33,329 bases of DNA. Source: a bacterium (GTDB taxonomy: Bacteria; Eisenbacteria; RBG-16-71-46). The notes under the pieces are model-generated. The model was not told the origin of the DNA. It did not search any database and saw only the letters and a list, made by a program, of their open reading frames with translations. Made by a program: the position numbers and the translations under genes. The stretch covers positions 1 through 33,329 of the forward strand of contig JAYWEM010000163.1 of the NCBI GenBank assembly GCA_043779265.1, given 5' to 3'. This document shows, piece by piece, positions 18,745 through 27,436 of the stretch; positions within the stretch are counted from its first letter, which is position 1, and the number at the start of each line of letters is the position of its first letter.

Positions 18745-18815
18745 CCCCACGGACAGCCGGCTGCCCGAAACCCGGGCGCTTCCCTCCCCCCATCCCCTGA
18801 CCGGTGCGAGGCCAC

Positions 18816-19415
18816 GTGGATATCTCGAATCTCGTCGTCGCACGTTACAACGATGGTCGCGTCCTCAAGGGGACCACGCGCGATTTCTCGGCCAACCGCA
18901 CCATGTTCCACATCGAGGTGCAGGGCACGGGCGAGGTCATCGAACTTCGCTGCCGCCAGTTGAAGGCGCTCTTCTTCGTGAGGTCGCTCGAAGGCGACTC
19001 GCAGCGTCAGGACCTGCGCGGATTCGTCGATGGCCCGCAGGAGACGTCGCATGGTCGCAAGATCGCGGTGCGCTTCCGCGACAGCGAATTCCTGTGCGGC
19101 TACACGCTGTCATGGTCGCCCGATCGTGAGGGCTTCTTCCTGTTCCCCGCGGACACCGGTGCGAACAACCAGCGGATCTGGGTCGTCAGTGCCGCGACGC
19201 AGGAGATCAAGGCAGGGCCCGCCGCCGAGGCGCTCGCCGAGCGCGTGCTGGGCGAGGATGCCAAGCGCTCCCCCGATGAGCATGCTGCCCCGCCCCTGCC
19301 CGCCTCGACTTCGATGCCGAGGCCCGCTTCGAGTGCTCGCCCCTCGGCCGCGTTCCTCCGACCGTCAAACGCCATGGCGCGTCCGAAACCCGAGGATCGC
19401 ACCGACGCCGCCTGA
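18816..19415 (+). CDS. DUF6982-like protein with disordered C-terminal tail
   Basis: GTG start with GAGG RBS; VVARY.DG..LKG.T.DF, LKALFFV, GRKI.V.F.D.E...G, GFFLFPAD...NN.RI.V; ends DAA. Confidence 0.8.
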   Translation: MDISNLVVARYNDGRVLKGTTRDFSANRTMFHIEVQGTGEVIELRCRQLKALFFVRSLEGDSQRQDLRGFVDGPQETSHGRKIAVRFRDSEFLCGYTLSWSPDREGFFLFPADTGANNQRIWVVSAATQEIKAGPAAEALAERVLGEDAKRSPDEHAAPPLPASTSMPRPASSARPSAAFLRPSNAMARPKPEDRTDAA

Positions 19416-19439
19416 AGCCGGTCGGCGCGACAAAGGGAA

Positions 19440-19481
19440 AAGTCAAGACGCCCGCCGGAGAACCGGCGGGCGTCTTGACTT
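19440..19481 (-). terminator. Intrinsic terminator
   Basis: Perfect 19-bp stem AAGTCAAGACGCCCGCCGG-agaa-CCGGCGGGCGTCTTGACTT, running into TTTTCCCTTT on the minus strand; lies between convergent genes. Confidence 0.88.
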
Positions 19482-19504
19482 GTGCGTCGGGGAGCAGCCC
19501 GGAA

Positions 19505-19603
19505 CTACTTGCGGGCCTTCTTCTGGACGCGGGCCTTCTCGGCCTTCTTGCGAGCACCCGCCTTGGCGCGCTTGCGGCGCAGGCGCCACTTGTATGCGGT
19601 CAT
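19505..19603 (-). CDS. 32-aa Lys/Arg-rich protein, bS22/mS38/eL41-like candidate ribosomal protein
   Basis: MTAYKWRLRRKRAKAGARKKAEKARVQKKARK*; RBS GGAG 6 nt upstream; codons AAG/CGC/GCC; own promoter and terminator. Below the ORF-track length cutoff. Confidence 0.8.
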   Translation of the reverse strand: MTAYKWRLRRKRAKAGARKKAEKARVQKKARK

Positions 19604-19669
19604 TCTTGTCTCCGGCGCCAGGGCGCTTGGTGGTTGCTGCGAGCGCCCTTGCGGCGCACGCGGTTCGGC

Positions 19670-19699
19670 AGTCTACAGGCTGGAAGGCCCGCGCCTCAA
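19670..19699 (-). promoter_or_regulatory. sigma70 promoter for the small basic ORF
   Basis: TTGAGG (19699-19694)-N18-TAGACT (19675-19670). Confidence 0.65.
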
Positions 19700-19709
19700 G
19701 CCAAGTGGT

Positions 19710-20438
19710 CTATTGGAGCTCGAGGTACTTGAGGTCGACCGGGCCGTAGAGTCCTCCGCCCTGCCCCCCGAACCACTCCGAACCCTTGCGCAGGGCGTCG
19801 CTCGGCACATCCAGCACAGGCTGCCCGAGGTCCTCGACCGCGGCGATTCGCGGGGTCGTGGGCAGCGCATAGCGCTCACTGGCGAGGTAGTCCTCGAACT
19901 CGTCCAGCGTCCACGCGAACAGCGCGTCGACATCCCAGATCAACTGGACCTCACGGCCCCGGAGCAGATCGGGCGGGTCGTCCGGACCGGCAGCCTCGAG
20001 CCTACCGACCGCGCAGCAGTCACAGCCGAACCAGAAGTCGAGCGGACCCACGACCTTGAGGTTCTCGGAGATGCGCGCCTCGGTTGGCGCATCGCGCCAG
20101 ACGTTGCCGAGCAGCTCGGAGATCGTGAACAGATAGCGAAGCAGCGCCCGCGGATCGTCCGATGCGGCGCCACGAAGCCCCGTCGCCAGCACACGGATGT
20201 TGCGGATGGCCTCGAGCCGGACCCAGGGCGAGCGCCGATTGGTGAGCGCCGTCAGGTTGTGCAGCGAACCATCGAGTCGCTCGCGCGCGAGCGCGAGCAG
20301 ATCGTCGAATGTGCTGCCGCCCTTGTCGAGGAACTCGACGGTGCGTCGCATGGCCTGATTGAGCGGCAGATAGGACGCGCGCAGCGTCGCCCAGTCCTCC
20401 GTCAGGCGCTGTTTCGCGATCACATCCCAATCGGCCAT
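19710..20438 (-). CDS. Hypothetical protein with WFGCDCC motif
   Basis: RBS AAGGGAG before ATG 20438; perfect TATAAT at 20499-20494. Confidence 0.8.
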   Translation of the reverse strand: MADWDVIAKQRLTEDWATLRASYLPLNQAMRRTVEFLDKGGSTFDDLLALARERLDGSLHNLTALTNRRSPWVRLEAIRNIRVLATGLRGAASDDPRALLRYLFTISELLGNVWRDAPTEARISENLKVVGPLDFWFGCDCCAVGRLEAAGPDDPPDLLRGREVQLIWDVDALFAWTLDEFEDYLASERYALPTTPRIAAVEDLGQPVLDVPSDALRKGSEWFGGQGGGLYGPVDLKYLELQ

Positions 20439-20603
20439 GGGTTCTCCCTTCAGTCGTCGCGGGTGCGCTCCGGTCGCATTCCGAGGCTCGCCCATTATAT
20501 CCACGGTGCAATCGCCCGGCCACCGGACTCCGGGATGCCGTAGCCGGGCCGGGACTCTGACGTCGGCTGGACATCTCGGCGTGACGCCCGCGCTTCGCCC
20601 GCC

Positions 20604-26763: not shown

Positions 26764-26792
26764 TTGACCCGACGTGCGGGCCCACCTACCGT
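26764..26792 (+). promoter_or_regulatory. sigma70 promoter of the BMC-T gene (leaderless)
   Basis: TTGACC-N17-TACCGT, 8 nt before ATG 26801; no SD. Confidence 0.7.
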
Positions 26793-26800
26793 GGGCGGCC

Positions 26801-27436
26801 ATGTCCGACGTGACGCTTCGCACCTACGTCTTCCTGGATTCGCTCCAGCCGCAGCTGGCCTCGTTCATCGGCACCACTGCGCGCGGATTCCTGCCGGTCA
26901 CCGGTGACGCTTCGATGTTCATCGAGACCGCTCCCGGGTTGGCGATCAATCGACTCACCGACGTTGCGCTCAAGGCCACCCAGGCGACCCCCGCGATCAT
27001 GGTCGTGGAGCGGGCCTTCGGGCTCCTCGAGATCCACCACCGCGACAAGGGTCAGGTGCTCGACGCCGGCCAGGCCATATTGGATCACCTCGGCATCCGG
27101 GAGAACGACCGCCTGCAGCCGCGCGTCGTCTCGGACCAGATCATCCGTGGCGTCGAGTCCTATCACGCCCAGGTGATCAACAAGATGCGCTTCGGCGACA
27201 TGCTGATCCCCGGCGAGTCTCTGTTCATCGTCGAGAGCGAGCCCGCCGGTTACATCGCTTACGCGGCGAATGAGGCGCTCAAGGCCGCGCACGTGAAGCT
27301 CATCGACGCATCCCTGTTCGGTGCGTTCGGCCGGCTCTACCTCTCCGGTAGCGAGGCGCAGATCGATGCCGCTCGTGACGCCGCACTACGCTCATTGACG
27401 AGCCTCAAGGGACGACCGATGAGCGGCGGGGCCTGA
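26801..27436 (+). CDS. Bacterial microcompartment shell protein, tandem BMC-T (CsoS1D/CcmP-like)
   Basis: [67 protein letters not shown]. Confidence 0.92.

Follow-up and report, generated by a model that had tools for sequence, protein, structure and literature searches.

Several groups of very small basic proteins resemble the peptide described here. bS22 of Bacteroidota and Borrelia (PDB 7jil_5, 9i5v_10, 8fmw_V) and its ortholog in Candidatus Eisenbacteria are, like this peptide, helical proteins of about 30 aa in which more than half of the residues are Lys or Arg. In Borrelia, the genes of bS22 and bL38 carried no annotation until cryo-EM (PMC10618245). Lys16 of mycobacterial bS22 contacts h44, and bS22 can be dispensed with in culture (PMC10081302; PMC12123416). 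eL41, a short straight basic helix, has a second, large-subunit site in Chaetomium (PMC10618245). bL37, bL38, bTHX and the microsporidian msL1 and msL2 are small, basic, clade-restricted and missed by annotation, and their binding to the ribosome has been demonstrated (PMC10618245; bioRxiv 10.1101/2022.09.21.508910). The latter report also links msL1 and msL2 with rRNA loss and indicates that rRNA can capture small basic proteins in a single lineage.

The window, that is the whole stretch of 33,329 nucleotides that was analysed, belongs to a genome (G000) of Candidatus Eisenbacteria. Its family is called f1 below, and f2 and f3 are families of the same order. The window carries a gene for a basic peptide that the first-pass annotation had read as 32 residues long with 16 Lys or Arg. 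This reading is confirmed, with nine Lys and seven Arg (Table 1). As is the case for the Eisenbacteria bS22 gene, this small gene stands alone and lacks annotation. The ESM Atlas contains the peptide letter for letter, which means that gene callers have called it elsewhere, and its relatives are labelled 'hypothetical protein' where any name is given.

Table 1. Coordinates of the peptide gene, its signals and neighbours, and the bS22 gene of the same genome (window positions unless a contig is named).
Feature	Position	Strand	Basis or remark
Peptide ORF (32 aa, ATG to TAG)	19505..19603	-	ORF scan, homologs, dN/dS, helix model
Shine-Dalgarno core GGAG	19610..19613	-	6 nt 5' of ATG
Possible leader hairpin, 8-bp stem	19620..19649	-	z -1.5
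-10 element TAGACT	19670..19675	-	Comparison with homologs
-35 element TTGAGG	19694..19699	-	18-nt spacer to -10
Intrinsic-terminator-like hairpin, perfect 19-bp stem (19481-19440) and T-rich tail	19430..19481	-	Junction with convergent DUF6982 gene
DUF6982 protein gene, convergent neighbour, outside the unit	18804..19415	+	PF22478, E 4.9e-25
p264 gene, upstream neighbour, outside the unit	19710..20438	-	Orphan; ORF open to 20504, likely start 20438
Canonical unannotated bS22 gene of the window genome	G000:C195:14993-15088 (= L145:2494-2589)	+	Alignment of the phylum's bS22

A search with this single peptide at a loose threshold gave matches in 33 of 41 genomes. All 30 loci listed from it hold an in-register ORF with a start codon, which stops at 31–35 codons in 29 of them and runs off the contig in the other. 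Using a family profile built from 28 of these loci, the peptide was found in 81 of 86 f1 genomes and in all nine f3 genomes (a set that includes the unpublished genome G026), but in none of the 105 genomes of 16 other Eisenbacteria families; in five non-carrier genomes, a cut-off of E 10 let through one chance match only. One weak match of the profile is out of frame in the first codons. The gene is nearly always single-copy, two matches being found in only two of 91 positive genomes (in one, 58% complete, a copy looks different; in the other, a copy is repeated at a contig end). Its frequency in f1 is close to those of bS22 and bS21 (78/86 and 77/86, respectively). Among 139 loci examined, 126 contain the peptide, which amounts to 82 unique homologs, all 31–35 aa long; of the 13 loci without it, two have the full 3 kb, and in 11 the sequence breaks off no more than 2.1 kb from the neighbour gene. 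A separate metagenome sample added 109 peptides among the 120 loci listed; 103 of the 107 complete ones have 31–35 aa, and 102 of the 109 lie beside the same neighbour genes as in the genomes. An HMM search of 1.84 billion representative proteins gave 27 matches, all of them members of the peptide family. Phage carriage was not found, one degenerate pattern giving no match in viral contigs.

The sense frame shows dN/dS values of 0.19 for close pairs and 0.47–0.55 for distant pairs (82 homologs, the pairs being non-independent), compared with 0.9–3.0 in the three other frames tested, which contain stops in 7 to 82 of the 82 sequences. Conservation in two families and this substitution pattern, both of which the first-pass annotation had proposed to check, identify the ORF as a real gene under selection. 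It is extremely improbable that conservation here reflects something other than a protein, whether a DNA or RNA element or a shadow cast by an overlapping frame. Two long ORFs on the opposite strand do overlap the peptide ORF in the window (19482-20543 and 19030-19749), but the contrast between frames argues against this explanation, and the start codon, Shine-Dalgarno (SD) core, promoter and length are kept across two families with different neighbours.

The promoter and the ribosome-binding site proposed from the window alone both withstand comparison with homologs. An SD-like core occurs in 78 of the 82 homologs (8.1 in dinucleotide shuffles), and TAnnnT at -85 to -30 in 80 of them (8.4 in shuffles, maximum 18). 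The full pattern of TTG, a 17- or 18-nt spacer and TAnnnT is found in 75 homologs, where shuffles give 0.47 and at most 4; among the metagenome loci listed, 88 of 103 have it. This sigma-70-type promoter looks like a housekeeping one; a consensus promoter scan of 18800-20400 gave no site, the TTGAGG/TAGACT pair scoring 8 of 12 with a threshold of 9. The leader hairpin claimed together with them did not survive: the stem can be drawn, but it is not significant in the window, and no leader structure is conserved (mean z -0.09 over 79 homolog leaders). As for the perfect terminator, it is present in the window and is typical only of the arrangement in which the peptide gene faces the DUF6982 gene. 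A downstream hairpin of -25 kcal/mol or lower is found in 26 of the 29 loci where the two genes converge, whereas strong hairpins occur in 11 of 42 and two of seven loci in the other arrangements and are no stronger than in shuffles. Codon use, which has no power as an expression proxy here, does not separate the peptide gene from ordinary genes (p 0.14).

The DUF6982 gene adjoins the peptide gene in most f1 loci, and no ribosomal or translation gene lies near it in f1. In f3, the peptide gene is found among unrelated neighbours. The gene and its promoter occur both ways round between the same flanking genes (27 versus 40 loci). A phase-variable inversion was considered and rejected, since orientation requires only one change on a 66-row tree of the neighbouring protein p264, the two clades differing in orientation, which points to a single old inversion. 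Because the promoter and the SD are kept through this inversion and in the unrelated context of f3, the role of the peptide is independent of its neighbours. The gene, with its own promoter and different neighbours in f3, is a self-contained unit, and the earlier claim of a stand-alone transcription unit is upheld to the extent that a separately transcribed gene is supported, the promoter and the SD travelling with it.

The p264 gene encodes a protein of 242 aa that is 68–93% identical among its copies and is found in 83 of 86 f1 genomes and in none of 114 others (f3: 0/9). It has no match in Pfam, NCBIfam, PDB or the Atlas and is, by its distribution, an f1 signature protein. It contains an invariant Cys-x-Cys-Cys and many Trp, and its model (pLDDT 81) shows a four-helix bundle and a beta domain, with generic bundle matches only (best Z 9.5). 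In many f1 genomes (L004, L005, L156 and others), and in both orientations, a gene labelled cytochrome c-like from its CxxCH motifs lies between the p264 and peptide genes; it is absent from the window. Four assemblies whose titles name other phyla (L173, L178, L180 and L189) fall inside the Eisenbacteria p264 tree with 75–84% identity and carry the peptide; judging from this placement, they are probably mislabelled.

The proximity of p264, whose gene lies within 3 kb of the peptide gene in 67 of 80 loci, and its presence in nearly all f1 genomes count for one alternative explanation. In this alternative, the peptide would regulate through an arginine-rich motif, its target being an RNA hairpin outside the ribosome (in an mRNA leader, tRNA, tmRNA, SRP RNA or RNase P RNA) or else an acidic protein, p264 for instance. 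A resemblance to the RNA-binding motifs of phage antiterminators, given by the short helix rich in Arg and its single aromatic residue, also counts for this explanation. However, the leader of the peptide gene itself contains no conserved RNA structure, two clades differ in how the gene is oriented towards p264, and all nine f3 genomes have the peptide and none has p264, so that p264 is not a required partner. A regulator of this kind is thus improbable.

Lys and Arg make up 51% of the residues of the peptide family, and the net charge ranges from +13 to +19. The AlphaFold model is a single alpha-helix comprising residues 3–31 (pLDDT 90.8). On this modelled helix, basic residues lie on all faces (angle table), as would be expected of a helix buried in a polyanion; small residues line one face, and Tyr/Phe4 and Leu8 line another. 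Residues 2–14 form a conserved N-terminal half with Thr, one aromatic residue, Leu and Ala amid fixed Lys and Arg, although the invariance at positions 1–5, 7 and 10 arises partly by construction, the homologs having been pulled out by their N-terminal motif. The second half is Lys/Ala-rich and more variable. Over six carrier genomes, identity reaches 68% for residues 2–14, compared with 59–92% for ribosomal proteins of the same genomes, which puts this segment at a middle rank among them, and 44% for residues 15–30, which is below every one of 26 ribosomal proteins.

This composition would also suit a nucleoid-associated polycation, H1-like or protamine-like, that binds and compacts DNA (or polyphosphate) without sequence preference. 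Half of the residues are Lys or Arg, the Lys/Ala-rich second half is shared with H1-like Lys/Ala proteins of the Hc1/Hc2 and AlgP type, and the gene stands alone, away from translation genes. In addition, the highest composition-controlled score among ten basic comparators was obtained with a Lys/Ala peptide that G000 also encodes (p 0.044; 0.17 with another null). H1-like proteins typically contain Pro-bearing repeats and vary in length, and Hc2 varies in size. The peptide family, in contrast, has a fixed length of 31–35 aa without repeats or repeat expansion, no Pro in 2378 positions, and an Arg-rich first half whose position-specific motif argues for a defined site. Moreover, Lys/Ala-repeat peptides are encoded separately in G000, which also has an HU-like gene. 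This polycation is rather unlikely, but it is the main rival of the reading favoured below.

The Lys/Ala-rich basic stretches seen elsewhere in G000 lie at C159:47504-47572 (+), C24:499-663 (-) and C106:18897-19064 (+). Of these, the first contains 13 Lys in an ORF of 22 aa, has a good SD and is possibly a minimal H1-like peptide. The gene directly before the bS22 gene of G000 is the one that we take, by recognition, to be HU-like. Upstream of this pair, apparent microcompartment shell genes were noticed by eye (L145:653-1942), and the window itself contains a BMC-domain gene (PF00936) at 26774-27436 (+).

The first-pass annotation had considered a divergent bS22/mS38 possible, on the strength of seven identities to mycobacterial bS22, and had raised the question of a canonical bS22 elsewhere in the genome. 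Such a gene exists. An alignment of the phylum's bS22 finds this protein in 185 of 201 Eisenbacteria genomes, including 78 of 86 in f1 and seven of nine in f3 (85 of 95 together), and it finds a single locus in G000, different from that of the peptide, which is thus not the bS22 of its genome. The phylum's bS22 is nearly invariant. Its alignment was built from weak PF08213 matches in other families, which proved to be true bS22, and it matches the bS22 chains solved for Flavobacterium, Porphyromonas and Borrelia (E 5e-11 to 1.5e-7). Two types occur in Eisenbacteria, one Bacteroidota-like and found in most families, the other passing PF08213 and found in families f7 and f8. The peptide, in contrast with this bS22, is confined to two families and more variable. 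PF08213 and NF047430 both miss the true bS22 of G000, so that the alignment of the phylum's bS22 is the only informative test for the peptide. A caution follows for other searches: PF08213 misses most Eisenbacteria bS22, which made the peptide seem to be its replacement. This idea, suggested by a complementary pattern in which PF08213 has no full-length match in f1 or f3, was rejected as an artefact, since bS22 is present in most genomes of both.

Profile comparisons place the peptide family outside bS22. At E up to 10, neither PF08213 nor NF047430 matched a single one of 28 members, which includes the AURKAIP1/COX24 comparison that the first-pass annotation had suggested, and the comparison of the peptide family with the bS22 profile (hhalign) gave a probability of 1.2%. 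Columns that are invariant in the phylum's bS22 are nearly or completely lost (His15 in 1/82 homologs, Lys/Arg16 in 3/82, Arg25-His26 in 0/82). The window peptide resembles Actinomycetota bS22/mS38/Cox24 in size and charge, and the seven identities are present when it is compared with the PDB chain, but they concern this peptide alone. The cited R25-V26-Q27 occurs in one of 82 homologs and is private to it, not a feature of the family.

A faint likeness to bS22 is nevertheless seen when the sequences are aligned start to start. With Bacteroidota-type bS22, the family shares 8.5 expected identities, compared with 5.2 by chance (p 0.012 uncorrected; p 0.039 by BLOSUM), in both cases as the best of 11 comparisons, and p falls to 0.0016 for residues 2–14, a segment chosen after looking. 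These p values are generous, as column shuffles ignore the neutral-residue starts that such peptides share. The G000 peptide and the G000 bS22 have 10 identities after Met (p 0.11). The likeness disappears with a composition-controlled gapless score and a free offset (p 0.44), a score by which type A and type B bS22 match each other in the control comparison (z 8.6). That the peptide is a paralog of bS22 is accordingly possible. A more specific proposal is that a diverged paralog competes with bS22 for the h27/h44/h45 pocket and gives a second ribosome class under some conditions. The length and start register, which are those of the lineage's bS22, agree with it, as do the start-to-start scores. 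Against it, the invariant columns of bS22 are lost, among them Lys16, the h44 contact of the mycobacterial protein (PMC10081302); canonical bS22 is retained and nearly invariant, and the promoter of the peptide gene is housekeeping-like. Such a competitor is quite improbable.

The likeness to eL41, which had been based on a KWR start, fails in the same way. At position 6, the 82 homologs have His (63), Phe (8), Ala (4), Ile (3), Met (3) and Trp (1), and PF05162 (eL41/eS32) has no match at the peptide locus at E up to 10 and none among 28 members, the one chance match (E 5.5) lying on another contig. The peptide is also longer than eL41/eS32 (32 versus about 25 aa). On the evidence of the profiles and conserved columns, the peptide is not bS22 or eL41. 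The bTHX (PF17070) and DUF6800 (PF20607) profiles have no match at the peptide locus, profile scores against bS21, bL34, bL35 and bL36 are not significant, and nothing matching the family was found in Pfam, NCBIfam or PDB sequence searches. Foldseek with the modelled helix gave nothing either. The 30 nearest Atlas clusters have no Pfam family in common; among those with a name, DUF6800 (0.87) and COX24_C (0.84) come nearest and serve as leads only. Literature searches on small and ribosomal proteins of Eisenbacteria, supplements excepted, found no publication on the family. Sequence comparison thus makes it a new family, to which none of the libraries searched gives a name, of a known kind of small basic protein. 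It shares size, charge, clade restriction and lack of annotation with bL37, bL38, bTHX and msL1/msL2; their ribosome binding is demonstrated, whereas that of the peptide, which has no PDB chain or PF17070 match, is only predicted.

The ribosome of the carriers offers no obvious vacancy. Among 26 main-cluster ribosomal proteins compared between seven carriers and 11 non-carriers, none is missing or consistently shortened (lengths from automatic start picks; uS2, uS15, bS1, bS16, bL19 and bL25 are outside this comparison). bS21 is present in all nine f3 genomes as well, and bS20 and bL32 in five of five. A fragment of bS21, bS20, uL30 or uL23 was considered as the source of the peptide and rejected: these parents are present with normal length, uL30 has lost no extension and uL23 is of equal length. 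A short conserved tail of uL29 that ends in Gly-Ile/Val-Arg/Gly/His was observed in eight of 11 non-carriers and none of seven carriers (L415, L437-L453), and may be a clade trait only.

The 16S rRNA is uniform in length (1547–1559), with three columns separating nine f1 genomes from 11 non-carriers. In the 23S rRNA of f1, two helices of domain I are shortened by about 15 and 11 nt (about 25 nt in total, e.g. L257, L463-L481), and a helix further on is also about 10 nt shorter than in the other families of the phylum; the counterpart of a 710-nt stretch measures 681–686 nt in 19 f1 genomes and 704–707 nt in two f2 genomes. Only one f3 23S sequence was found among 10, and this carrier retains the domain I helices. 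An rRNA deletion tracking the peptide was rejected on these grounds, as the shortening is restricted to f1, and the 19 columns of 23S that separate carriers are not exceptional (45, 33 and 11 for other clades). A link to rRNA loss of the msL1/msL2 type is thus not borne out in the available f1 and f3 23S sequences, and the peptide, if it is ribosomal, would predate the loss in f1.

Taken together, these data favour a lineage-specific accessory helix that is bound to the ribosome at a site other than that of bS22, a reading that we hold tentatively and judge to fall just short of an even call. The points in favour of this ribosome-bound helix are a near-universal single-copy gene with a frequency like those of bS22 and bS21, a conservation of residues 2–14 within the range of ribosomal proteins, a fixed length and the start-to-start likeness to bS22. 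With its constitutive promoter and its presence in about 95% of the clade, such a gene is best fitted by lineage-specific ribosomal proteins. The points against it are the lack of translation-gene neighbours in f1 and of a missing or shortened ribosomal protein, the variability of residues 15–30, higher than in any of the 26 ribosomal proteins, the ordinary codon use, the 23S loss not common to f3, and the likeness to bS22, the best of 11, that is lost with a free offset and in hhalign.

The following model can be proposed for this accessory helix. The stand-alone gene would be constitutively transcribed and would give a highly charged helix of 32 residues that binds a structured RNA, most likely rRNA, in two Eisenbacteria families. 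Residues 2–14 would anchor it in one defined RNA pocket, while the variable Lys/Ala-rich half would neutralise the nearby phosphate backbone; the difference in identity between the halves and the pattern of the helix faces suggest this division. The binding mode may be like that of bS22, eL41 or bL37, but at a different site, the site of bS22 being presumably occupied by the canonical bS22 that is still present. The gene possibly arose by duplication of the lineage's bS22 gene. We infer here, for the peptide, its expression level, RNA binding, ribosome target and origin from bS22. What stands of the first-pass inference is that a very basic helical miniprotein is encoded by a genuine gene, conserved and transcribed on its own; the assignment to a divergent bS22/mS38 or to eL41 does not stand. 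The best class for the product is that of a candidate lineage-specific ribosomal or other nucleic-acid-binding miniprotein. A bolder version of this model, in which a bS22 duplicate in the ancestor of the two families became a new ribosomal protein, moved to a second rRNA site and later allowed the loss of about 25 nt from 23S domain I in f1, is unlikely. If true, the ribosome would contain two bS22-like helices and would provide a traceable case of protein gain.

The list of bacterial ribosomal proteins continues to lengthen as genes missed by annotation are recognised, those of bS22, bL37 and bL38 among them. In its genomic traits, the peptide family looks like one more such protein, here from a phylum without cultures and sharply delimited, with two families that have it and sixteen that do not. 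This boundary and the co-existence with bS22 lead to a clear prediction for cryo-EM or proteomics; if the peptide belongs to the nucleoid instead, it would be a new minimal nucleoid peptide.
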